Positions 6,727 to 38,612 of a stretch of DNA of 64,000 nucleotides are shown here, in pieces. This stretch comes from Herpetosiphonaceae bacterium. Lineage in GTDB: Bacteria; Chloroflexota; Chloroflexia; Chloroflexales; Kallotenuaceae. The position numbers were made by a program, and so were the translations under genes. The stretch covers positions 14,099 through 78,098 of the forward strand of contig JACDGP010000005.1 of NCBI GenBank assembly GCA_013821605.1, in the 5' to 3' direction. A model generated the notes under the pieces. The model made no database searches and was not told the origin of the DNA. It was given only the letters and a program-made list of their open reading frames with translations. Numbering within the stretch: the stretch's first letter is position 1; every line of letters starts with the position of its first letter.

Positions 6727-8172
6727 CTACCCGTGCCCGAGTTGATACGGGTTATCAGACTGCACCGCCATCAGGTACCACGAGGTCGCGCCGATGTGGA
6801 GGTATTGGAAATAGCCGAAGCCATAGCCCGTATCGAGCGGGCTGGACGCGGCGACCACACCGGTACCCGTCGGAATAGGCTTGCCGCCGACTGTCTGATT
6901 TTGCCCCAAGCTCGCCTGCGCCTTGCGGATATTCAGGAGATAGCCTTCGGCCCTCACCCGATCCCCTGGCGCGGAGCGCTGGAGCAACGCGTCGGCGAGG
7001 TGCGCGGTTCCTTCAAGCCAGACCGCGCTGGGGTCGGGCAACGGACCATAGCCGCCGATCGGCGCGCCCGGATTTGCCCGCAAGCTGGCGGAGGAGAAGC
7101 TTACACCGCTGAGCGTCAGGTTGCCCGTCAGCCCCGAGTTTGGGTCCTGGGGCGTATCAGTGACCCGCAGGTTCGTGTTCGCCCAATCGACCGAGGCCAT
7201 ATAGGTGGGGTCGAGGAGGGCGAGATAGCTCCAGGTCTGTACGTCCTCAGGGATGGGGGTGGGGTTAAGCGTCCCATCCGGGTTGGTACCCGTATAAAAG
7301 TAGCCCGCGGTCGGGTTCCACATTGCCACGATAAATATGTGTGCGTGCGCGGCTCGGTCTGCCCAGGTGCTGTCACCGGTGAGCTTGTTCAGCATCGTGA
7401 AGAAGGCGTAGACGTCGATGTTGTGCTCGGTGGCAGCATAGGTCAGCCGGTTATTAGCGCCGTCGACACCGAAGGTATACCCGCCAAAGCCGATCGTGGA
7501 ATACGCGTTGTCGACGATCCAGTTGCCGAGCGCCGTGGCGCCGTCTTCGTAGCGCTGCTGGCCAGTAGCGGCGAAGAGTTGCGCGAGCGCGATGCCAGCC
7601 CAGGCCATGTCGCCCACGGCGCTGCCAGTGAAGCCGAACTGCGACGCGATGTTCACCGTCCCATCGGGATGGACGAAGTTGTCGGGTTGCGGGGTGCCAT
7701 CATAGAACACGTAGGGTCCGACATTGTAGGCCTGCCGCAGTCGCCCGTCATTGTAGGTAGGGTCGTGCGCCTGAGCATACAGCAGACTATCGCCGAGCAC
7801 CCGAGCCCGCATGCGATCGTCACGGGTGCCACGCGTCAGAAACGCGAGGACCGTGAGCGCGTTATCATACGTAAACGCCGTGCTGAAGAGCCCGTTCTGG
7901 TCGGAGTAGCTTTGGACCAGACGCGTCGTCGTGCCTTGGTCGTAGGCATCCATCATCGTCTGAAGAAACCCGTAGCCGCGTTGGATCGAGTCCAGCAACG
8001 CTGCTGAGCTCTGGCCGGTAGCGCTGGCCATGGTATCACGTGCCGCCGCCACGTTGTCGATCCAACCGGTCGCCAATAAGCCGGCCAGACCAGCCATCCC
8101 CAGACCACGCTTCAAGAAGCTACGGCGTGGAATGCCGCCGTCCCGAATGTTTTCATCTCGTGCTGATCGCAT
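6727..8172 (-). CDS. Tat-exported protein, possibly a six-hairpin (alpha/alpha)6 glycosidase-like fold
   Basis: Twin-arginine signal RRSFLKRGLGMAGLAGLLATG. ATG at 8172 has GAGGA upstream, while 8202 is GTG. The fold assignment is a guess from helical repeat motifs (DNALTVLAFL, GDMAWAGIALAQLF). Confidence 0.7.
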   Translation of the reverse strand: MRSARDENIRDGGIPRRSFLKRGLGMAGLAGLLATGWIDNVAAARDTMASATGQSSAALLDSIQRGYGFLQTMMDAYDQGTTTRLVQSYSDQNGLFSTAFTYDNALTVLAFLTRGTRDDRMRARVLGDSLLYAQAHDPTYNDGRLRQAYNVGPYVFYDGTPQPDNFVHPDGTVNIASQFGFTGSAVGDMAWAGIALAQLFAATGQQRYEDGATALGNWIVDNAYSTIGFGGYTFGVDGANNRLTYAATEHNIDVYAFFTMLNKLTGDSTWADRAAHAHIFIVAMWNPTAGYFYTGTNPDGTLNPTPIPEDVQTWSYLALLDPTYMASVDWANTNLRVTDTPQDPNSGLTGNLTLSGVSFSSASLRANPGAPIGGYGPLPDPSAVWLEGTAHLADALLQRSAPGDRVRAEGYLLNIRKAQASLGQNQTVGGKPIPTGTGVVAASSPLDTGYGFGYFQYLHIGATSWYLMAVQSDNPYQLGHG

Positions 8173-8312
8173 TGCATCCTCGCACTCATCGGCACCGATC
8201 ACCAGGGTGTGGACGCACTATAGCACGATGTGGGCCGGATGTGGTGTACGTCATATGCTATCTCATACCCTCATTGCACATGGTCCGTAATGGTCCATTT
8301 CTGCAACTTCAC

Positions 8313-9325
8313 CTATACTTGGCAACAGCTTACCGCGGAGGTTCTGTACCAGACATGACTCCCACAAACGACACTGCTCCAGTGATGGAATTGCGAGTCG
8401 CGCTGACGACCAACAACTATGAGCGCCTTGTGAACTTCTACTGTATCGGTCTTGGACTTGAACCAGCCCAACTGTGGGCCGGCGGCGACGATCACGCCAT
8501 CATCCTTCATGACACTTTGCACTTGTGCCCGCACCAGGCTTCGGAACGCGACCTCATTGCTGATCTGCGCCGTGGCGAGCTGAAAGCCGACGTTACTTAG
8601 GCCTTGCATTACACGGTCATAATTGCCTTCGCAGAAGCCAGCGAGGATCTCATCGGCCGGGGCCAATGATGCTTGCGCAAGGTACTCTGCAGAGCTGGGC
8701 AGATTGTTCCACAGCGAAGCTGCGCCGCGTCCTAAGACCGGCAGCGTCGCGCCGGGATCATGGAGCAGATCGACCGTGGGCTGGAGCATGCCCTGGATCG
8801 CCTGTCCTACCGTGATGGGTACAATGGCGAACCGGCGGGCGGCATCCTGCACGTTCAAATCCCGTATTCCTGTGACCACCACACAGTCCCGTTCGCCCAC
8901 CGTCAAGGTGTGGCCAAAGACGGTGATTTGCTTCTTTGGAATACAGTTGCCGCTCGGATCGGTGTTGAGCGTCGGGCTGTCATAGCCATACTGATAGGGC
9001 TGGAGTGACATGGGTTGCGATACGTCGCCCGCAAATGGATCGCGCCCCACAAACTTACCACTGCCCGGTTGATACCATCTCGCCCCCAGGTTGACGAGTC
9101 CCGTGGTCGCATCCTGCAATTCACATAGCTCGTGCCAGGACTTTCTGCCGCGCTCGTGAGCCGTTGGAGGCCGTCATAACCGTACTGGACACTCCGCACT
9201 TGGCTTCCCAAGGTCTCGGTCACCGACAGCCGGTCGCCCACACGGTCAAGGCCATACTGGAAGCGACTGCGCGCGATCCACCGCATCTCCGACAATTTCG
9301 CAGCAGAGCTTAACCTCTGAAGCAA
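8313..9325 (-). pseudogene. Frameshifted, internally deleted RHS fragment with an uncharacterised C-terminal tip
   Basis: Frame A (9325-9110) has YD/RHS repeats (RFQYGLDRVGDRLSVTE...VQYGYDGLQRLTSAAESPGTSY). Frame B (9119 onward) has ELQDATTGLVNLGARWYQPGSGKFVGRDPFAGD...NTDPSGN, then a unique tail. Its last 65 or so codons are antisense to the VOC remnant. Confidence 0.7.
8354..8600 (+). pseudogene. 5' remnant of a VOC/glyoxalase-family gene
   Basis: MELRVALTTNNYERLVNFYCIGLGLEPAQLWAGGDDHAIIL resembles a VOC N-terminal beta-alpha-beta-beta-beta unit. After about 8510 the frame looks non-homologous, and the opposite strand carries RHS-tip coding sequence. Confidence 0.4.
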
Positions 9326-9452
9326 CTACTATGTTTTCAGGTACAATATGGCAATACCTTCGCCAAAAATCGGACAACGCTTTGGATCCCTTGCAGTGAT
9401 AGGTTTTGACAGTGTGTTGCCGGGCGGGAATTAAAACCTGCTTCACGCAACC

Positions 9453-9480
9453 TTGCCACAATTTAGTTTGATCATACTAT
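9453..9480 (+). promoter_or_regulatory. Candidate sigma-70-type promoter for the 9532 hydrolase gene
   Basis: TTGCCA (9453-9458), a 16-nt spacer, then TACTAT (9475-9480), about 50 nt upstream of the ATG. Confidence 0.35.
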
Positions 9481-9531
9481 GTCACGCCCCTGTGCCTTCC
9501 GCCGTGAGATGACCTCTTTTACAAGGAAAAA

Positions 9532-10554
9532 ATGGCGAGGGTATTGCTGATTCTACAGGATTTAGTTGCAACCGGATGGCTCACTATGACTACAAAACGT
9601 GCCTCTTATGTATTATGGACTGTACTCGCAATTGTGCTTAGCGTGAATATCATTGCGTATATGCAAGCACGTGCGATGACCCACTTTACTCAAGCGGGAC
9701 AACGAACCGAGCCTCCAGAGCGCCTATCGGTTGGTGCAAAAATTCGGACTGTGCTGTCAGGCGTCACGATCCCGCGACCGGAGAACCATCATACGCCTGC
9801 GGACCTCAAGTTACCTTATGCTGTACATTGGATTCATGAGCCAGATGGCACAAGACTGGAGGGCTGGATTGTGCCCTATCCAGATTCTCACGGCGTCGTC
9901 CTCCTTTTTCACGCCTATGCTGTGAGCAAGGAGACGTTGCTTGCTCCGGCCTCTGCTTTCCATGAGCTAGGCTACGATACTCTGCTCCTAGATTTTCGAG
10001 GATCGGGTGGATCAAGTGGGCATGAGACGAGCTTAGGGGTGAGAGAGGGAACCGATGTGGCATGGGCCGTCATCTATACACAACACATGTGGCCGGGCAA
10101 ACCAATCATATTGTACGGCGTATCGATGGGAGCCGTAGCAATTTTGCGAGCCATCGCTACGGCAGGTGTCGCACCTGCAGCTATTATCCTAGAAAGTCCC
10201 TTTGATCGGTTGGACACGGCGGTGACGAATCGAGTCCGGGCAATGGGGCTGCCCGGGTTTCCTGTGGCAGAATTGCTCGTATTCTGGGGCAGTATGCAGG
10301 AAGGATTCGATGGATTCGCGCACAATCCAGTCGACTACGCGACAACCGTACGCTGCCCCGCATTATTATTACTGGGTGATGAGGATGCGCGGGTGACGAT
10401 CGCGCAAGGAACTCATGTCTTTGATAAACTACACGAGCCCAAACAACTCGTACGCTTTCCCCACGCCAACCATGAGTTCTTGCTCCTAGAGGACCCGGTG
10501 ACGTGGCGACGACACGTAATGCAGTTTCTAGAGTCAGTTAAACAACATGTATGA
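9532..10554 (+). CDS. Membrane-anchored alpha/beta hydrolase (ABHD13/Bem46-like serine hydrolase)
   Basis: N-terminal TM YVLWTVLAIVLSVNIIAY, nucleophile elbow GVSMGAV, late HANHEF. ATG is preceded by AAGGAAAAA. GC is lower than in the flanks. Confidence 0.8.
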   Translation: MARVLLILQDLVATGWLTMTTKRASYVLWTVLAIVLSVNIIAYMQARAMTHFTQAGQRTEPPERLSVGAKIRTVLSGVTIPRPENHHTPADLKLPYAVHWIHEPDGTRLEGWIVPYPDSHGVVLLFHAYAVSKETLLAPASAFHELGYDTLLLDFRGSGGSSGHETSLGVREGTDVAWAVIYTQHMWPGKPIILYGVSMGAVAILRAIATAGVAPAAIILESPFDRLDTAVTNRVRAMGLPGFPVAELLVFWGSMQEGFDGFAHNPVDYATTVRCPALLLLGDEDARVTIAQGTHVFDKLHEPKQLVRFPHANHEFLLLEDPVTWRRHVMQFLESVKQHV

Positions 10555-10680
10555 GCAATCGTTCCAAAGGTTTGCGCGAAGAACAGGATATAGTATCTTT
10601 GTATTATATCTTACGACAGGCGCTCGCATCATGTTCAGCAACCTTTGAGGTGCGGAAGCCTCGATGTTTGCCATGGTATA

Positions 10681-11130
10681 TCAGCAAGCATGTCGCTCTG
10701 AGTCACGTTTTCGTTTGAGATCCCAAAGCGTCATTCCTATTCCGTTCAGCCATAGTGGCCAACAGACACCTAGTATGGCTAGTCGGAGGACAAATAGATG
10801 GGTATAACTATCTTCCCAGGTCGTCGGTTGGTAATGTTCTGGCCATCCAGTTTGGAAGAGTAAGACCAATAACGCACTGATCAAAAAACTTATCGGCACC
10901 CCACCCTTTTGCCACCGGCCGGAGGGCATCAGCCAGCCGCAGAAGCCGAGGAGGCTGAGAGGCAGCGCAAATTGAAGGAGAGGTCCAATCAGAAAATCAT
11001 AGATATTGAGATACCACGGTGCACTGGTATACAGACGATACGCGAAAATAACACTACTCAGTACAAGAGCTGTACTCATCCAACGCCTTGTAAGGAACCT
11101 CACCACTGTTGTAACCTTATCTACAGCCAT
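10681..11130 (-). CDS. Small 4-TM membrane protein (candidate immunity protein for the upstream RHS tip)
   Basis: 149-aa ORF with four hydrophobic segments, AT-rich like the toxin tip. It lies 270 nt downstream of the RHS-tip stop on the same strand. I recognise no family. Confidence 0.55.
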   Translation of the reverse strand: MAVDKVTTVVRFLTRRWMSTALVLSSVIFAYRLYTSAPWYLNIYDFLIGPLLQFALPLSLLGFCGWLMPSGRWQKGGVPISFLISALLVLLFQTGWPEHYQPTTWEDSYTHLFVLRLAILGVCWPLWLNGIGMTLWDLKRKRDSERHAC

Positions 11131-11400
11131 TCAGAGTTCTACCCTTTCTATATCCATCGGTGAAAGATGTGACCAAACACATCACTATTTTCTGGTTGCA
11201 CCTTAGGCCCGTCCTCATAATAGAAGAGGATGAAGGTGTTATTAAGGCAGACCGTCCTCCTCGGTCCGTGCCGTTTTCGCCGCAGGGTGATGCTAAGAAA
11301 CTGCCGTAACTACATAACCGTTACCAACCTCATGCTTATCGGAGTGCAATTGGTCTGGATCCTATCCCCTGAGTGCTACCTGAGCGATTACCTGTTGGGC

Positions 11401-12573
11401 TTAATGTATGGAACGGATTGCACTTTCTGATATTGACCAAACAGGGTTTGGTCTAGTTTTAGTACTATCAAAGAACTCGTTGTCAAGTGTAGTGTGTATG
11501 GCTCCATCGACCAACCAGTTCTCTGCTCCATCCACGTACTCTGGAACCAATAGAAATGCTTTTTCTGCGACATTTAGAGGTGAATTACCGGATGTAAAAT
11601 TGAGCTGTCTCACAACCGAGGCTGGCTTCTTAGCCATTTGCACATCAGCAGAAAGATTTACTATATCTTCCGTAATCATGAGGTCAATCTTAACACTAGG
11701 TAAATCAAGTGCCACATTCATGATAGTCTGCGCCCCTAAACTGTGACCTACTAAGATAATAGGTTCAACTGAACAGGTACTGCTGCTAACCGAGCGCACC
11801 AGTTGCTCAATACCCAGCGCATTATTCCAAGGTGCGATGAACGTCTTTCCAGGAATTATACCTTTACCAGCGAATCTACGCCCCATTTCCCACACGCTAA
11901 CCATATGTTGTGGATTAAATGGATCTTGAACATAAGTATCCGAGCCTAGACCTCCAACAAATACAGCTAAATTCCCAGAGGGATCAACTTTGTTTACGGG
12001 AGTGTTTTCGACGTAGGTATAGGGCACGGCAGTCTGCGGGAGAGTCAGTAATCCAGTAAATGGATCGCGTCCGACAAACTTGCCACTGTTTGGCTGATAC
12101 CATCTCGCCCGCAGGTTGACGAGCCCCGTCGTCACATCCTGCAATTCACCGGTAAAGCCAAAGCTGCCCGGCTGCGTCGTGCCCTCGACTTGCCCCCACG
12201 GGTCGTAGTTGATGGCTTTCAACGGCACCCCGCCATTGCTCAACACTTGGCGCCCACTGCCCAACACATCTGTCCCAAACCAGGTCTTCACGCCCCCTTG
12301 CACTGCTGTCAGCCGCTCGCGCCCATACAGGTAGGTGATGTTCGTCGTGCCGGTCGTGGACTGCAGGATTTGGGGCAAACTTGTCGCCAGGTCTTGCACA
12401 TACTGGGGTGTGGCTCCGCCTTGGGTCGTGCCGACCAGCATGCCATCGCCGTTGTAGGTCGAACTGGTCGTCGTATTGCCCGTGACGGTCGAGGTCAGCC
12501 GGTTGAGCGCATCGGACGGGAGCTGTGTGGTAAGCTCCCCGGTTGACATCGAGTATAGCAAACGTGACGTCAA
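11401..12573 (-). CDS. Orphan RHS C-terminal core fragment fused to an alpha/beta-hydrolase (lipase/esterase-like) toxin-type domain
   Basis: RHS core end ...INYDPWGQVEGTT..FGFTGELQDVTTGLVNLRARWYQPNSGKFVGRDPFTGLL, then VFVGGLGS...ILVGHSLGAQ (GxSxG). There is no RHS shell upstream. The ORF opens with TTG, and the first ATG is at 12549. Confidence 0.75.
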   Translation of the reverse strand: MTSRLLYSMSTGELTTQLPSDALNRLTSTVTGNTTTSSTYNGDGMLVGTTQGGATPQYVQDLATSLPQILQSTTGTTNITYLYGRERLTAVQGGVKTWFGTDVLGSGRQVLSNGGVPLKAINYDPWGQVEGTTQPGSFGFTGELQDVTTGLVNLRARWYQPNSGKFVGRDPFTGLLTLPQTAVPYTYVENTPVNKVDPSGNLAVFVGGLGSDTYVQDPFNPQHMVSVWEMGRRFAGKGIIPGKTFIAPWNNALGIEQLVRSVSSSTCSVEPIILVGHSLGAQTIMNVALDLPSVKIDLMITEDIVNLSADVQMAKKPASVVRQLNFTSGNSPLNVAEKAFLLVPEYVDGAENWLVDGAIHTTLDNEFFDSTKTRPNPVWSISESAIRSIH

Positions 12574-12674
12574 TAACCGGCGTCCACAACCGAAAAATGG
12601 CAGTCCATAAGTCCTATGATGGAAGGGTGGATAGGGGATACCGAGGTATTATCAGGGTAATGGGAGTTGAAGCC

Positions 12675-14136
12675 ATGCACATCTACGGGCGAGGCGGTCG
12701 ATTAAGCAGTCGGTTGGCGGTCACGAAGGTTTGGGTTTGTCTGGTTGTTTTGCTTGGTGCTAGCAGCCTGGGGGTGGCGGGTGCATCCGGCAGTGCCTTT
12801 ATCCGTGTTAATCAGATCGGCTACAGCACCAGCGGGATGAAGCAAGCGGTGTTGATGGCAAGTGGTTCGGAGAAGGGTGCGATCGTTAAGCTGGTTGACG
12901 CGGCGGGCGGTACCCTATGGAGTGGAGCGATTGGGCCAAAGCTGGGAGCGTGGAGCAGCGGTTTTCCCGATGTGTATCTGCTCGACTTCTCGACCGTCCA
13001 CATTGCCGGGAGCTATACACTGCAGGTCGCCGGCCCGATCAATGCGGCATCGCCCCCATTCCGGATCGACAGTGGTGCCAAGCTGTACAGCGCTTTGCTG
13101 CCCAATGCGCTCTTCTTTTATAACGCACAGCGGGATGGCGCCAATGTCGATCCGAGCGTGATGCAGCGCAAGCCGTCGCATTTGACGGATGAACAGGCTA
13201 CTATGTACCAGCCGCCGGTGTATCTTAATGGCCGGTTGCAGGGTGACTTGACGCCGATTGGGACAACTATTGATGTAAGCGGTGGCTGGTTCGATGCCGG
13301 CGACTATCTCAAATTCGTCCAAACGGCGAGCTATGTCGATGCTGCGATGCTTTTTGGGGTGCGGGAACATCCCGATGTGCTGGGGGCGGGGGCGGCGGAT
13401 TTTGCCAGCTAAGCACGCTTTGGCCTTGATTGGCTGCTCAAGATGTGGGACGACCAGACGCAGACGCTGAGCTATCAAGTTGGTATCGGCGATGGCAACA
13501 ACCAGATTGTTGCCGATCACGATGTGTGGCGCTTGCCACAAGCCGACGACCAGCTGCATGTACAACCCGGCGATGCGAAGTACTATATTAAGTACCGGCC
13601 GGTCTTTCGAACCGGCGATGCGGGTTCAGCAGTCAGCCCGAATCTTGCCGGCCGGTTGGCGGCCAGTTTTGGGCTGTGCTTTCAAGTGTATCGCTTAAGC
13701 GATCCCGCCTATGCTCAACGGTGTTTGATAGCCGGTGAGCGTATTTTTGATCTTGCTCAGACGACGCAGGTTGGACGACTCACGACAGCTTCGCCGCACA
13801 ATTATTACCCCGAGAGCGAGTGGGGCGACGACCTGGAACTCGGCGCGACCGAGCTTTATCTGGCGACGACGAGCGGCCCGCTGCCGCCGGGGTTGCCACA
13901 TTCCGACCCGGCGTACTACCTCCAGGGCGCCGCACAGTGGGCGGATGCGTATATACATGGACCGAACGATGGCGCAGACGCGCTTAATCTGTATGATGTT
14001 AGCGGGCTAGCACACGAGTGGCGCGCGCCGCTGCCCACCGGCAGGGGGCGATCCGTTCGCGGTTTTCAGCGGCCAGGGTGCGCGGTACAAGGATGACGTG
14101 CGCTCCTGGGTGACCGTTGAGCCGACGGACGACTAG
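12675..14136 (+). pseudogene. Glycoside hydrolase family 9 endoglucanase, disrupted
   Basis: Signal peptide, an Ig-like N-domain (FIRVNQIGY) and the GH9 motif DVSGGWFDAGDYLKF. In-frame TAA at 13410-13412 falls inside ...ADFAS*ARFGLDWLLKMW. A frame change and deletion lie near 14010-14045. The C-terminal signature YKDDVRSWVTVEPT is in the +1 frame and ends at TAG 14134-14136. I found no H-x-R signature. Confidence 0.8.
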
Positions 14137-33699: not shown

Positions 33700-36270
33700 T
33701 TACAGGCGCGGATCGACAGGCTCGCTTTCGAGGGCCAGCACGCCGAAGACGCATTCGTGGACGCGGCGCAACGGTTCATGTTGGACGAAGCGCTCCAATG
33801 CCTCGATGCCCAACGCAAATTCGCGGAGGGCTAGCGAGCGTTTGGCGTTCAGCCCACGGGAGCGCAGCCGTTCAAGATTGTGAGTGCGCGTATATTCGGG
33901 GCCATAGATGATGCGCAGGTATTCGCGACCACGGCACTTAATGGCCGGTTGTACCAACCCACGCCGCCCGGTCACGATAAAATCCAGAGGTTTGACGACC
34001 ATGCCTTCGCCGCCACGCTCGGTTAGGGCTTCCCACCACTGAATGCCGACGGCTTCACTATCAGGATCGGTCACGTCGATTACCTTGTAGGGCGTCGCGT
34101 GGAGCAACGAACTCCCCTGAGCAAGCTGTGCAAGCGTTTCCATGTGCCACACATGATCGCGCTGTGTATGCACGCTCCCTTCGGTTGCCAGCAGATGAAA
34201 TGGGGCAAGTTTCAGGTCAGCCATGCTGGATACCGGCCAGCAGTAGTGCTGGTAGGCACGGACATACTGATCGATCAGTTCAGCACGATGGTGGTAGTCC
34301 TCGGCCAGGCTTTGGACATCCACACCCTGAGTGACGGCTTGAGCCAGCACCGCACCTGCTTCTGCGAAGGCTCCCCTGGCCGCCGCACCCACGGCCGCAT
34401 ATTGCTCACGAATGAGCGCCTGTGCCTTGGCCGACCAGGGCATGAGCTCGGCGTCAAGGCAGACCCAGTCGGTATGAAACTGCTCCCACCAGCCGGCAGC
34501 CGAGACCGCAGATTGGACTTCCCGCAGAAAGGCTGCTTCCAGAGCGGGATCATCGAAGAAGCGCCGGCCGGTACGGGTGTAGCAGATACCGAAGCTATCG
34601 TCAATGACACCAAAGCGCTTGGTCGCTACGCCAGCATCACGACAAACGACGACGATAGCCCGCGAGCCCATATGCTTTTCTTCGCAAATCACGCGCTCTA
34701 CGCCTTCATGCCGGTAGTAGCGAAAGGCTTCGTGGGGATACTCCAAGAGACCTGGCTCTTGCGTTGTCTCCGAGGGCGACATCGTCGGCGGTAGGTAGAT
34801 GAGCCACTTAGGATCGGCGGCGAAGCGGCTCATGACTTCGAGTGCCGTGATGGCGTTTTCTTCGCGAATCGTTACACTGCGATGGAGCCGCGTGGTGATT
34901 AAACGCTTGCCGAGCACATCGCTCACATCCAGCACATCATCGTAGATCTGTTGGGCAGTCAGGGCAGGTGCTTCGGTCTCAAGCACCAAAAATGGTTTGA
35001 CCGGCGCGCAATAGGTTACCAGGGCCGGAACCGAAACCAGTGTTGCTTCAGGATAGCGCAAGGCTGTCAGCTTGCCACCGAAGACGCAGCCCGTGTCGAT
35101 GTTAATGGTGCGATTCAGCCATTCAGGATCGGGTACTGGTGTATGGCCATAGACAACCATGGCAGCACCACGGTATTCGGCAGCCCAGTTATAGCGCACC
35201 GGCATACCAAACTCATCGGTTTCACCAGTCGTCTCACCATACAGCGCGAAGTCACGGACTTTGCCCGAGCCACGACCTTGCAAAGCTTGCTTCATACCGG
35301 CATGCGCTACGACCAGCTTGCCATCATCAAGCACATAATGGCTTATGAGGCTATCAAGAAAGGCAGCGACCTGCTCAAGGAACGCCGGTGGCTCCGCGCT
35401 GAGTTGTGCTAGACTTTCTGCGAGTCCATGGCTGATTTGCACATCCTTACCACGTAACTTGCGCATAAGCTTCATATCGTGGTTGCCGGGTACACACAGT
35501 GCCGTTCCCGAGGCAACCATAGCCATCACGAGCCGCAGCACATCGAACACCTGCGGCCCGCGATCCACGAGGTCGCCCAGAAAGATGACGCGCCGGTCGT
35601 CAGGGCAGGCGACGGTATAGCCAGGCTGTCCATCGGCATCGGGCGTGGTCGTGACCTCGTAGCCGAGTTGCTCAAGCAGCAGTTGGAGCTCAGCGAAGCA
35701 GCCATGGATGTCGCCGATGATGTCGAATGGGCCATGCTCATGCTTGCGGTTATTCCATAACGGCTCACGCGTGATGGATGCCGCTGCAATCTCCTCTAAT
35801 GAAGAAAGTACGAAGACGTGGCGGAACCCTTCCTTGTGCAAGCCACGCAAGGATCGGCGTAGCTGCTGTGACTGTTGACGAATGACGTGTGGTCCGAAGG
35901 CGCGGTCTGGACGGGTGCGGTTACGTTCCTGACACAGCTTTTCGGGCAGGTCAAGAACTAGGGCTACGGGCAGGCAGTTGTATTCACGTGCCAGAGCAAC
36001 GAGCGGCTCGCGCGCTTCCGGCTGTACGTTGGTCGCGTCTACGACGGTTAGCTTGCCGGCTGCTAAACGCTTGGCAGCAATATATTGCAGCACGTCGAAA
36101 GCGTCTTTTGTCGCCGCCTGGCTATTCTCGTCGTCGGAAACAAGCCCACGACACGCATCCGAGGACAACACCTCCGTCGGCTTGAAGTGTGTGCGAGCAA
36201 AGGTCGATTTGCCCGAGCCAGAAGCACCGATCAGGACGACCAGAGCGAGCTCGGGAAAGCTAATATCCAT
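33700..36270 (-). CDS. pnkp: Polynucleotide kinase-phosphatase with ligase-like adenylyltransferase domain (bacterial RNA repair Pnkp)
   Basis: P-loop kinase LIGASGSGKSTF, calcineurin-type phosphatase GDIHGC / GDLVDRGP / GNHD, and C-terminal nucleotidyltransferase motif EEKHMGSR. I chose the MDISFPELALVVL start at 36270. Confidence 0.9.
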   Translation of the reverse strand: MDISFPELALVVLIGASGSGKSTFARTHFKPTEVLSSDACRGLVSDDENSQAATKDAFDVLQYIAAKRLAAGKLTVVDATNVQPEAREPLVALAREYNCLPVALVLDLPEKLCQERNRTRPDRAFGPHVIRQQSQQLRRSLRGLHKEGFRHVFVLSSLEEIAAASITREPLWNNRKHEHGPFDIIGDIHGCFAELQLLLEQLGYEVTTTPDADGQPGYTVACPDDRRVIFLGDLVDRGPQVFDVLRLVMAMVASGTALCVPGNHDMKLMRKLRGKDVQISHGLAESLAQLSAEPPAFLEQVAAFLDSLISHYVLDDGKLVVAHAGMKQALQGRGSGKVRDFALYGETTGETDEFGMPVRYNWAAEYRGAAMVVYGHTPVPDPEWLNRTINIDTGCVFGGKLTALRYPEATLVSVPALVTYCAPVKPFLVLETEAPALTAQQIYDDVLDVSDVLGKRLITTRLHRSVTIREENAITALEVMSRFAADPKWLIYLPPTMSPSETTQEPGLLEYPHEAFRYYRHEGVERVICEEKHMGSRAIVVVCRDAGVATKRFGVIDDSFGICYTRTGRRFFDDPALEAAFLREVQSAVSAAGWWEQFHTDWVCLDAELMPWSAKAQALIREQYAAVGAAARGAFAEAGAVLAQAVTQGVDVQSLAEDYHHRAELIDQYVRAYQHYCWPVSSMADLKLAPFHLLATEGSVHTQRDHVWHMETLAQLAQGSSLLHATPYKVIDVTDPDSEAVGIQWWEALTERGGEGMVVKPLDFIVTGRRGLVQPAIKCRGREYLRIIYGPEYTRTHNLERLRSRGLNAKRSLALREFALGIEALERFVQHEPLRRVHECVFGVLALESEPVDPRL

Positions 36271-37654
36271 GGCGCGTCCATACTCCCATTTGGGTTGGCG
36301 CTCCAGCTTCGGCATCCTCGGGTCCGACCGGCAAAAACTTAACAGTATACCCAAAGCGCTCGGCAACACTCTTAGCCCAACTCTGAAACTCTGCGCGCGT
36401 CCACTCGAAGCGATGATCACGGTGCCGAAAGTTACCGGCGGGTAGCTGCTCCCAGCGCACGTTATACTCGGAATTGGGCGTAGTAACGACCACTGTTCCA
36501 GGCTTGGCCCACTCCCACAGTACTCGCTCGAAAGCAGCCAGGCGGGGTGGGTCCAGATGCTCGATCACCTCGACGACCGCCGCAGCATCATAGCCGGCCA
36601 GCCGTTGATCACGGTAATTGAGCGAACCTTGGATAAGGCGCACACGTTCGCGCTGCATTTCGGGCAAACGCTCAAGATGGATGCGCTCGTGTGCCAGTTC
36701 TAAGCTCCGATACGATACGTCCATCCCAACGATTTCCTCAAACTGCTTATCTGCCAGCAGTGCCCCGATCAACCGGCCTTCACCGCAGCCCAGATCGAGC
36801 ACGCGCCGCGCGCCGGAGGCACGCAGTGTAGCGACGACCGCACCCATGCGTTGCTGCTGGAGGCTCATGCGCTCCTCAACTACGGCCTCTTCACGCTCAT
36901 GCGCTGCGACCATAGCATCGGGGTCAGGTTGTTCAACTAAGCGCGCTAAAGCTGATTGAGCTAGACTCTTGCGATGCTTGAGATAGCGCTTGGTAATGAG
37001 TTCGCGTTCGGGATGGGTCGCCAGCCAACCGTGGCCAAAACGCAATAGCTTCTCGACCTCGTCATCGCCAACATAATAATGCTTGTCGTTATCCAGCACC
37101 GGAATGAGCACATAGAGATGGGTCAGCAACTCCTGTAAGCATACCTCCGCCGTAAGGTGCAGGGTAAAATAAGCGCTGTCACCCCACTCTGGAACATGCG
37201 TGTCCAGTACATGATGATCGACGGCCACGGCGTAGCCAAGGGGCTCCCAGAGACGGCGAAGTAATGCTTCACCACCGTCGCATGGAACAACGGCGAGGGT
37301 TGCGGCGAAGGGCAAAGCAGTTTGTGCGAGCTCGGGTCGTTCTTTGCTCCGACCGCCCAGGGCAGTCCCTAAAATCTGATTGATCGCAACGCTCATAAAC
37401 GAAGATGCGACGTAGGGCCGATCATTGACATACTGTTGTAGGGCGAAACCTTCGCTTTCATGCCCGCGCACCAACCCAACAGCATCAACATCGAGCAACA
37501 GCGCAACGGTGCAACGATCCAGAGACGCCTCAGGATAGAACAGGTGCACCTGACCAAACGACATTGGAAACGATTGTAGCCGTGCCGGGTTTTTATGAAG
37601 GAGGTAGCCCAAATCAGTAGCCGGTGTATGCGTGGTTGTGATGGTGAGCAGCAT
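36260..37654 (-). CDS. hen1: 3'-terminal RNA ribose 2'-O-methyltransferase Hen1
   Basis: N-terminus MLLTITTTHTPATDLGYLLHKNPARLQSF is typical of bacterial Hen1. C-terminal SAM motif VLDLGCGEGRL. It overlaps the pnkp start by 11 nt. Confidence 0.88.
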   Translation of the reverse strand: MLLTITTTHTPATDLGYLLHKNPARLQSFPMSFGQVHLFYPEASLDRCTVALLLDVDAVGLVRGHESEGFALQQYVNDRPYVASSFMSVAINQILGTALGGRSKERPELAQTALPFAATLAVVPCDGGEALLRRLWEPLGYAVAVDHHVLDTHVPEWGDSAYFTLHLTAEVCLQELLTHLYVLIPVLDNDKHYYVGDDEVEKLLRFGHGWLATHPERELITKRYLKHRKSLAQSALARLVEQPDPDAMVAAHEREEAVVEERMSLQQQRMGAVVATLRASGARRVLDLGCGEGRLIGALLADKQFEEIVGMDVSYRSLELAHERIHLERLPEMQRERVRLIQGSLNYRDQRLAGYDAAAVVEVIEHLDPPRLAAFERVLWEWAKPGTVVVTTPNSEYNVRWEQLPAGNFRHRDHRFEWTRAEFQSWAKSVAERFGYTVKFLPVGPEDAEAGAPTQMGVWTRHGY

Positions 37655-37763
37655 GCCTAACAATAGCATATTTTTCTGATGATCCAAGTACTGCCCATCT
37701 CGTTGGAACAATCCCTGCTGTGCTGCTGATGGAGGATTTGTACTACCATTGAAGGGGGCTTCG

Positions 37764-38612
37764 ATGCCTGAGTTGCACACCCTACTTACTGATCTCGCGC
37801 TGGGAGAATCGCCGCGCTGGCATAGTGGCCGTCTGTGGCTTTCCGACTGGGGTGCCCACGAGCTTCTTGCCGTCGATCTGGCGGGCAAACGTGAACTCAT
37901 CACCAGCATAGCGTCGGCTCCATTTTGCATCGATTGGCTACCAGACGGACGGCTGCTGGTCGTCTCGGGAGGCGAAGGGCTGCTCCTGTGCAGAGAGCCT
38001 GGGGGATCGTTCGTGACCTATGCTGACCTAACCACCCTCTCTCCTTACCCCTGGAACGAGATTGTGGTCGATGGTCGCGGCAACGTCTATGTCAACACGA
38101 TCGGCTTTGACTTTCTAGGCGGCGAGTTCGCTCCCGGCAGCATCGCGCTTGTGACTGCGGACGGTGCCGTTCGGCAGGTGGCGGATGGCGTTGCATTCCC
38201 CAACGGCATGGCTGTGACGCCCGATAACGCCACGCTGATCCTCGCCGAGTCCTATGCCAACCGGCTCACGGCGTTCGATATCGCGGCGGATGGCAGCCTC
38301 GCGAACCGACGGACGTGGGCTAACCTCGACGGAGGATACCCCGATGGTATTTGCCTCGATGCAACGGGCGCGATCTGGTACGCAGACGTTCCTAACAAGC
38401 GATGTGTGCGTGTACGCGAAGGCGGCGAGGTACTGCAGACCGTCGATCTTGATCGAGGCTGCTTCGCCTGCATGCTGGGGGGTATTGATAACCAGACGTT
38501 ATTCATGGTAGCCGCCGCATGGGGTGGTGCTGCAAGCATGGAGGGCGGGCAACGAACCGGCCTGGTGCTCAGCGTGGAGGCACCTGCGCCACGTGCTGGT
38601 TGGCCCTCGTAG
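37764..38612 (+). CDS. SMP-30/gluconolactonase/LRE-like beta-propeller protein (second copy, diverged)
   Basis: GESPRWHSGRLWLSDWG, PNGMAVTPDNATLILAES, YPDGICLDATGAIWYA. ATG 37764 follows GAAGGGGG. Confidence 0.85.
   Translation: MPELHTLLTDLALGESPRWHSGRLWLSDWGAHELLAVDLAGKRELITSIASAPFCIDWLPDGRLLVVSGGEGLLLCREPGGSFVTYADLTTLSPYPWNEIVVDGRGNVYVNTIGFDFLGGEFAPGSIALVTADGAVRQVADGVAFPNGMAVTPDNATLILAESYANRLTAFDIAADGSLANRRTWANLDGGYPDGICLDATGAIWYADVPNKRCVRVREGGEVLQTVDLDRGCFACMLGGIDNQTLFMVAAAWGGAASMEGGQRTGLVLSVEAPAPRAGWPS

Follow-up and report, generated by a model that had tools for sequence, protein, structure and literature searches.

The 64,000-nt window analysed here (a stretch of contig JACDGP010000005.1 of a Herpetosiphonaceae bacterium, Chloroflexota) carries on its minus strand two neighbouring open reading frames (ORFs). 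The first joins a fragment of an RHS core to an alpha/beta-hydrolase tip, and the second, located downstream, encodes a small protein with four predicted transmembrane (TM) helices (hereinafter designated the 4-TM protein). We consider it probable that the two genes form an orphan RHS polymorphic toxin-immunity cassette, in which the tip is a membrane-lipid hydrolase and the 4-TM protein protects against it. Coordinates and lengths of both ORFs (390 and 149 aa) agree with those of an initial annotation made from the sequence alone; the three motifs that it named (RDPFTGLL, VFVGGLGS and ILVGHSLGAQ) are all located in the 390-aa ORF, and its hand counts of 38/60 GC for 12301-12360 and 22/60 GC for 11641-11700 are exact on recounting. 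All features are listed in Table 1.

The 390-aa ORF carries RHS core identity. TIGR03696 (Rhs_assc_core, NCBIfam) matches residues 123-200 with E 6.2e-18 and 65.1 bits against a cutoff of 32.5 bits, and the match stops at residue 200, which corresponds to model position 75/76. Two DPxG motifs, DPFTG and DPSGN, lie 27 residues apart in this ORF, and it is at the second that the core model ends. We therefore assign PVNKVDPSGN as the canonical PxxxxDPxG(L) demarcation between core and tip, in place of the upstream RDPFTG, to which the initial annotation had given this role. DPSG is kept in 10/10 family members whose sequence covers the boundary region, and the first strand of the hydrolase (LAVFV) begins right after N201.

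The core and the tip differ sharply in base composition, as had been claimed. GC content falls from 0.596 over 12040-12573 to 0.438 over 11401-12039, GC at third codon positions falls from ~0.75 to ~0.35, and change-point analysis places the best break at nt 12022 (z=5.9). The switch thus falls after the first DPxG motif and before the second, ~17 codons upstream of the core/tip boundary, and the exchanged cassette therefore takes in the final 15-25 core codons. Relatives show the same drop at the same position (0.65 to 0.45 in locus L018 and 0.67 to 0.46 in L004; loci of relatives are given hereinafter as L numbers and their proteins as P numbers). All 600-nt segments with GC below 0.48 in the 64 kb, whose mean is 0.588, start within 10501-11551. 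The 4-TM ORF, previously described as equally AT-rich, is less so, its GC of 0.487 lying between that of the tip (0.438) and that of the window (0.588).

It is only from about residue 19 (nt ~12519) onward that the 390-aa ORF aligns with full-length RHS proteins, P0008 among them, which leaves a core of only ~180 aa ahead of the tip. No YD-repeat shell is found upstream of this fragment, where a divergent GH9 gene starts at 12543. By comparison, the full-length relative P0008 of L018 comprises 2,466 aa with RHS_repeat, DUF6531 and TEN_YD-shell matches. The 390-aa ORF is therefore a 5'-truncated orphan module, a status that the initial annotation had not recognised. There is also no full-length rhs gene in the 64-kb window (0/10 of the largest ORFs are RHS), so the window copy, having neither shell nor delivery domain, can hardly be delivered as it stands.

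The truncated core, PxxxxDPxG boundary, AT-rich tip and downstream immunity gene are the same as in the orphan rhs modules that enterobacteria carry (Poole et al. 2011 and Koskiniemi et al. 2014, cited in PMC12994826). Relatives likewise occur where orphan tips and immunity genes form typical arrays, with tandem modules in L001, L002, L004 and L023. Unlike the enterobacterial modules, the window copy combines a truncated core, an intact tip and an immunity gene without lying downstream of a full-length main rhs gene within the 64 kb. The parent RHS proteins here also begin with DUF7948, SBBP or DUF6531 rather than being PAAR- or VgrG-linked, and the tip and immunity families differ.

The tip folds, by prediction, as a minimal alpha/beta-hydrolase. 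An AlphaFold2 (AF2) model built on five sequences has a predicted local distance difference test score (pLDDT) of 71.7 and a predicted template-modelling score (pTM) of 0.78, shows the regular beta-alpha-beta pattern with pLDDT above 80 across most of its core, and has no lid domain. Foldseek searches of the PDB with this model return 16 matches at E<=1e-3, all of them alpha/beta-hydrolases. The best is Bacillus subtilis LipA (1t2n/1i6w, E 8e-5, target-normalised template-modelling score 0.63), and further matches are a lipase of A. fulgidus, monoglyceride lipases, cutinases, PET hydrolases, thioesterases and acetyl esterases. FVGGLGS, directly after the first strand, resembles an oxyanion loop. 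Eleven positions are invariant in an alignment of 12 tip-family members, among them E270, P271, G276, S278, G280, N325, S328, H360 and W379, and D364 (His+4) is nearly so. A profile search of PDB sequences gives Escherichia coli YbfF as the best sequence match and aligns S278 and D303 with its Ser89 and Asp113, both of which are listed as catalytic residues (PMC2948520). D303 is kept in 9/12 members, namely the eight closest (seven with a 4-TM partner, and P0002, whose partner is a WD40 protein) and P0015. The serine-hydrolase layout that the initial annotation read in the tail, and for which it proposed structure prediction and Foldseek, is thus supported by a predicted hydrolase fold with LipA as the top match, by the invariant serine and histidine and by the alignment of D303 to YbfF Asp113. 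DUF726 was considered for the tip and rejected as a generic nucleophile-elbow signal below cutoff.

We model the tip as a minimal alpha/beta-hydrolase of LipA-like lipase/esterase type, with Ser-His(-Asp) as catalytic residues and no lid. It shares with LipA a length of ~180-190 aa, the lack of a lid, the GxSxG elbow and, behind the first strand, a loop rich in glycine. The two differ in sequence (15-16% identity) and in the position of the acid, which is proposed after beta6 in the tip (as for YbfF Asp113) and lies after beta7 in LipA; LipA, moreover, is a secreted digestive enzyme rather than a toxin tip, and has no immunity partner. A cassette of the same build whose hydrolase is neither a lipase nor a phospholipase appears unlikely to us. 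Such an enzyme would cleave another ester or thioester of the envelope (such as those of O-acetyl or D-alanyl groups of wall polymers, of lipid-linked precursors or of lipoprotein acyl chains), and the membrane partners would neutralise it there. The fold serves many chemistries, and this alternative would accommodate the cutinases, PET hydrolases, thioesterases and acetyl esterases among the Foldseek matches, the short-chain esterase YbfF as the best sequence match and the tip's lack of a lid; Tox-ABhydrolase-2 is likewise not assignable to lipids in Zhang et al. 2012 (PMC3482391). The structures matched best, by contrast, belong to true lipases (LipA, that of A. fulgidus and monoglyceride lipases), all partners of the tip family are membrane-embedded or membrane-anchored, and the characterised antibacterial GxSxG alpha/beta-hydrolase toxins (Tle1-4, TslA and TslM) are phospholipases (PMC13560087 and, as background, Russell et al. 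2013). We infer that the substrate of the tip is lipid and that the tip probably acts on the membrane.

Both hydropathy and the helices of an AF2 model give the 149-aa protein four hydrophobic helices, in line with the initial annotation, which could place it in no family; indeed, no Pfam family matches at threshold. DUF7139 and Rer1, both below cutoff, were rejected as reflecting TM-helix composition. Counts of lysine plus arginine fit the positive-inside rule with both termini inside (N-in/C-in) in all six 4-TM homologues. Two loops stand out, loop 1 with a conserved APW...DF (residues 37-46) and the acidic and aromatic loop 3 with GWP..WEDSY. Both are predicted to face outward, and we propose them as the toxin-contact surface. 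The start of the ORF is uncertain (11103-11130): ATG 11130 adds an N-terminal extension of 12 residues that has no counterpart in the homologues, and the alternative GTG starts at 11106 and 11103 give an N-terminus MRFLTRRW..., like the MSLQRW... of the homologues.

The two genes travel together. A 4-TM homologue lies directly downstream of a homologous tip in seven independent loci (the window, L001, L004-7, L008/9, L010, L018 and L020; Table 1), so that the 4-TM ORF is conserved beside such tips in other genomes, a point that the initial annotation had raised. The toxin-immunity reading offered there is supported by this linkage together with the hydrolase fold. Its caveat that a gap of 270 nt is long for a coupled pair carries no weight: tip and partner are 2 to 450 nt apart in homologous cassettes, and the spacers share no sequence, so the gap is no argument against the pair. 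Alignment with the spacers of L018 and L010 reveals no conserved element, and the gap appears to be a plain spacer. It contains a weak sigma-70-like site (11245->11217, 9/12 positions), in a scan whose 4 sites compare with 2.4 to be expected by chance. The 64-kb window gave no match in Rfam or tRNA scans.

Both genes are under purifying selection in relatives. Between L001 and L004, the only pair used because those of the window with its relatives are saturated (dS >2), the ratio of nonsynonymous to synonymous substitution rates amounts to 0.11 in the tip, 0.29 in the core and 0.14 in the 4-TM gene. Identities of tips and partners are correlated (r=0.90 over 15 pairs, which are not independent), and the 4-TM partner diverges faster than the tip in every pair. 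These properties make the 4-TM protein most likely the cognate immunity protein of the tip, as judged from gene order and comparison of sequences.

The converse, that the 4-TM protein is not a toxin-binding immunity protein, strikes us as quite improbable. It might have another membrane role (export or lysis helper, mimic of a target or receptor, or lipid remodeller) or block the import of a toxin acting in the cytoplasm, and this would explain its near lack of soluble mass with which to bind a 21-kDa enzyme, the failure to find a structural or family match, and a spacer to the toxin gene that varies and sometimes reaches 270 to 450 nt. Yet its gene directly follows the tip, where immunity genes canonically lie, the protein co-diverges with the tip and evolves faster, as cognate immunity proteins usually do, and its replacement in sister clades by an unrelated membrane-anchored WD40 protein fits binding better than a fixed enzymatic or export role.

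Homologues were gathered in several searches. A first direct search with the 149-aa ORF returned only itself, homologues came to light in the flanks of the tip homologues, a two-sequence 4-TM profile then retrieved P0006 and P0007, and a metagenome scan with a 4-TM peptide pattern gave nothing. The profile used for representative genomes retained RHS-core columns, and its ~140,000 matches are mostly RHS cores, with ~10 covering the tip. The taxonomic assignment of the relatives' short contigs is doubtful: L011 (= L001), the 5.3-kb contig with the closest cassette, is filed as a metagenome-assembled genome of an "uncultured Bacteroidota" and may be a binning artefact. The assembly of L024 (GCA_000152145.1) is probably that of Oscillochloris trichoides DG-6 (Chloroflexota). 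The 4-TM ORF of L018 (8075-8494) has no gene call in the source record, and the full-length RHS gene and its 4-TM partner are directly followed there by a tyrosine integrase and a Tn3-family transposase (8522-12546).

The tip family as a whole is seen in ~15 loci, seven of which have the 4-TM partner. Other partners follow distant tips (30-38% identity) and one close tip, P0002. A signal-anchored WD40 propeller of 364-398 aa (Pfam WD40, E 1e-39 to 1e-59) comes after the tip in six independent loci (L002/3, L021, L024, L025, L026-29 and L030/32). The next gene after P0011 (L021) encodes an unrelated 143-aa 4-TM protein, and that after P0017 a 78-aa 2-TM protein. The 143-aa protein was compared with the 4-TM family of the window and is not demonstrably homologous (hhalign probability 0.1). 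All partners seen are thus membrane-anchored, and N-terminal charge and positive-inside counts suggest that the WD40 propellers face outside the cytoplasm. In a crude neighbour-joining tree the WD40-linked P0002 nests within the 4-TM clade, so the partner class has switched at least once. Beta-propellers are stated not to be found among immunity proteins (Zhang et al. 2012, PMC3482391).

Two of these loci show signs of rearrangement. In L021, a 79-aa ORF (8160-8399) matching only the C-terminal end of the hydrolase tip (...PNPVWTLIE...) stands between the 4-TM partner of the current tip and the WD40 gene; it looks like an older tip and immunity cassette that has been displaced and, if so, would be direct evidence of tip replacement. 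L032 (277-1164) and L030 (277-1314) hold the same cassette, with an in-frame deletion of 50 aa in L032 that takes out the DPxG cleavage motif, the first hydrolase strand and the oxyanion loop while the WD40 gene stays intact, so the toxin is inactivated and the partner kept.

Table 1. Features of the window and of related loci. Positions for related loci are those of the locus itself.
Feature	Position (nt)	Strand	Remarks
RHS-tip ORF	11401-12573	-	390 aa
5'-truncated RHS core fragment, residues 1-201	11971-12573	-	TIGR03696 match, alignment to P0001, P0002 and P0008; GC ~0.60
First DPxG motif RDPFTGLL, residues 169-176	12046-12069	-	From sequence; change-point (~12022) just downstream
Core/tip demarcation PVNKVDPSGN, residues 192-201	11971-12000	-	Canonical PxxxxDPxG(L); presumed autoproteolysis motif
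Tip, 189-aa minimal alpha/beta-hydrolase, residues 202-390	11404-11970	-	AF2 and Foldseek; GC 0.44
GHSLG nucleophile elbow	11734-11748	-	S278 at 11740-11742; GxSxG invariant in 12 members
D303, candidate catalytic acid, after strand beta6	11665-11667	-	Aligns to YbfF Asp113
H360, candidate catalytic histidine, HTTLD motif after last strand	11494-11496	-	Invariant in 12 members
Spacer between tip and 4-TM gene	11131-11400	-	270 nt, non-coding; no ORF of at least 35 aa on the minus strand
4-TM ORF	10681-11130	-	149 aa
Loop 3 of 4-TM protein, acidic and aromatic, GWPEHYQPTTWEDSY, residues 95-109	10804-10848	-	W96, P97, D107 and Y109 invariant; predicted extracytoplasmic
Second, degenerate RHS remnant	8313-9325	-	YD-repeat frame 8903-9325; resumes in another frame, 8313-9119
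Membrane-anchored alpha/beta-hydrolase	9532-10554	+	Hydrolase_4, E 5e-16; N-terminal TM helix
GH9 cellulase, split	12543-14096	+	ORFs 12543-13412 (CelD_N and GH9 N-terminus) and 13443-14096
Pnkp/Hen1 RNA-repair gene pair	33700-37930	-	PNKP_ligase, E 3e-184; Hen1_L, E 4e-111
Cassette L001			Tip 59% identical to window; 133-aa partner ORF 2 nt downstream, 47% identical to 149-aa ORF (E 1e-37)
Cassette L004 (also L005-7)			Tip 60% identical to window; 4-TM homologue, 2 nt
Cassette L008/9			Tip 56% identical to window; 4-TM homologue adjoining tip stop codon
Cassette L010			Tip 47% identical to window; 4-TM homologue, 359 nt
Cassette L018			Tip 48% identical to window, at end of 2,466-aa RHS protein; 4-TM homologue, 450 nt
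Cassette L020			Tip 46% identical to window; 4-TM homologue (partial), 11 nt
WD40 partner, L002	2271-3386
WD40 partner, L021	8427-9623
WD40 partner, L024	4122-5231
WD40 partner, L025	1711-1995
WD40 partner, L026	1777-2871
WD40 partner, L030	1314-2417

Our preferred explanation is an orphan cassette made up of a 5'-truncated RHS core, PVNKVDPSGN, a horizontally exchanged AT-rich tip and a cognate immunity gene. RHS and Tc proteins are established to cleave themselves, and this autoproteolysis is the basis for release of a tip after the second DPxG. In a full-length protein such as that of L018, the YD-repeat shell would enclose the tip until cleavage of the core at this point freed it, and the tip could then hydrolyse ester bonds of membrane lipids at the outer face of the target's cytoplasmic membrane. 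The 4-TM protein would protect the producer and its siblings, possibly by binding or occluding the hydrolase at the membrane surface through loops 1 and 3. The present role of the window copy would most likely be immunity against neighbours that deploy this tip, and it may also be a store on which a full-length rhs gene in another part of the genome could draw by recombination.

Several findings weigh against this explanation. The alpha/beta-hydrolase fold does not fix the substrate; no curated alpha/beta-hydrolase model of Pfam or NCBIfam reaches its cutoff on the tip (the best, Abhydrolase_6, scores 19.8 against 26.3 bits, with weak matches of that model in 9/12 tip-family members); and D303 is Ala or Gly in three distant members, which makes the catalytic acid uncertain. 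For the 4-TM protein, the AF2 model built on 3 sequences is of low confidence (pLDDT 62, pTM 0.39), its comparison with known folds by Foldseek yields only insignificant helical-bundle matches (E>0.1), and the topology and binding surface are derived from the positive-inside rule only. The close tip P0002, at 50% identity, has a WD40 rather than a 4-TM partner. Finally, a promoter scan gave no convincing site upstream of the orphan 390-aa ORF, and no evidence of type VI or type VII secretion systems (T6SS, T7SS) or of a signal peptide was obtained for delivery.

The orphan state raises the further possibility that the window copy is a decaying, non-functional remnant, with a toxin ORF that is inactive or unexpressed and a 4-TM ORF that is also silent or is the sole functional part, as an orphan immunity gene. 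We hold this to be rather doubtful, though a serious contender. It would account for the 5'-truncated ORF without shell, delivery domain or a main rhs gene within 64 kb, for the failure to find a promoter-like site upstream of it, and for the second, degenerate and frameshifted RHS remnant 2 kb away, and it has a parallel in L032 with its deleted tip and intact partner gene. However, the 390-aa reading frame is intact with every family-invariant residue in place, both genes are under strong purifying selection in relatives, and recombination is known to bring orphan rhs modules of Salmonella back into use (Koskiniemi et al. 2014, cited in PMC12994826).

The alternation of 4-TM and WD40 partners also allows a bolder extension of the orphan-cassette explanation, which we put forward tentatively and regard as short of an even chance: a rare family of tips that hydrolyse membrane lipid and kill from the outer face of the cytoplasmic membrane, and against which membrane immunity proteins of two unrelated classes can stand in for each other. 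The tiny 4-TM protein, representing one class, would then have to block the enzyme by two short loops at the bilayer surface, and the signal-anchored WD40 propeller would represent the other.

The initial annotation called a hydrolase tip with a polytopic membrane partner an unusual pairing. This holds insofar as we found no polytopic 4-TM partner of an alpha/beta-hydrolase toxin described, and not in the broader sense, as membrane immunity to lipid-targeting toxins has precedents in Imm-Act1 and TilM. The first, a 2-TM protein, protects against the lipid-targeting toxin Tox-Act1 of the Salmonella T6SS (PMC12994826). With a lipid-targeting toxin and a small multi-TM immunity protein, Tox-Act1/Imm-Act1 is the closest precedent, although the toxin, a stand-alone T6SS effector and not an RHS tip, adopts a permuted NlpC/P60 acyltransferase fold, and the immunity families are unrelated. 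The second, a 1-TM protein, is the partner of the lipase toxin TslM (PMC13560087). TslM/TilM and TslA/TilA of the Staphylococcus aureus T7SS resemble the present pair as lipase toxins of a single-membrane bacterium with outward-facing, membrane-tethered immunity (PMC13560087), and TilM is signal-anchored, analogous to the signal-anchored WD40 partners of distant tips. These toxins differ in being delivered by LXG/T7SS rather than RHS proteins, and TilM crosses the membrane once and bears a globular DUF1433 domain, as against 4 TM helices and almost no soluble domain in the window partner.

The T6SS Tle1-4/Tli pairs are similar in combining antibacterial GxSxG alpha/beta-hydrolases that attack membrane lipid from outside (an action proposed for the tip) with an adjoining cognate immunity gene. 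The source for these antibacterial phospholipase toxins (Tle) is said to be the work of Russell et al. in 2013. The window tip is much smaller, and Tli proteins are soluble or lipoprotein periplasmic proteins rather than polytopic ones. The tip gives no DUF2235 (Tox-ABhydrolase-1) or DUF3274 match, Lipase_3 (best E 0.002) and PGAP1 (E 0.03) remain below threshold, and neither the window nor related loci contain T6SS genes (VgrG, PAAR or Hcp linkage). Tox-ABhydrolase-2 and -3 (Zhang et al. 2012, PMC3482391) are likewise C-terminal alpha/beta-hydrolase toxin domains of polymorphic toxins, type 3 being predicted to be lipase-like; their listed immunity partners are soluble (Imm66, Imm69 and SUKH), and it is by descriptions, not sequences, that we set them apart from the window tip.

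Other genes of the window surround the cassette. In the second RHS remnant, the YD-repeat frame makes no sense after "AESPGTSY" and resumes in another frame at "QDATTGLVNLGARWY...DPSGN" (TIGR03696, E 5e-10), from which an internal deletion or frameshift follows. The 210-aa tail of this remnant matches no family, shows no GC drop and overlaps a plus-strand ORF (8040-8600). Between the two RHS remnants, on the opposite strand, lies the gene of a membrane-anchored alpha/beta-hydrolase, which is not found beside homologous cassettes and so is probably an unrelated neighbour. On the other side of the cassette, the split of the GH9 cellulase gene may reflect a frameshift, a pseudogene or an error in the sequencing. 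Further away lies a gene pair for RNA repair, Pnkp/Hen1 (Table 1).

Both protein families described here are rare and uncatalogued, and the architecture that unites them is of a well-known kind. For genome annotation, the 390-aa ORF is to be read as an orphan toxin module rather than as a housekeeping hydrolase, and its tip represents a small lipase-like toxin domain that escapes every curated family model. Should the pair be confirmed, it would illustrate how an interfacial hydrolase can be neutralised by a membrane protein that has next to no soluble domain, and would provide a compact lipase/esterase scaffold of 190 aa. The most novel element is the alternation of 4-TM and WD40 partners across the tip family, a natural experiment on the re-invention of immunity to one toxin fold, and RHS tips more widely are a large store of undescribed antibacterial enzymes.

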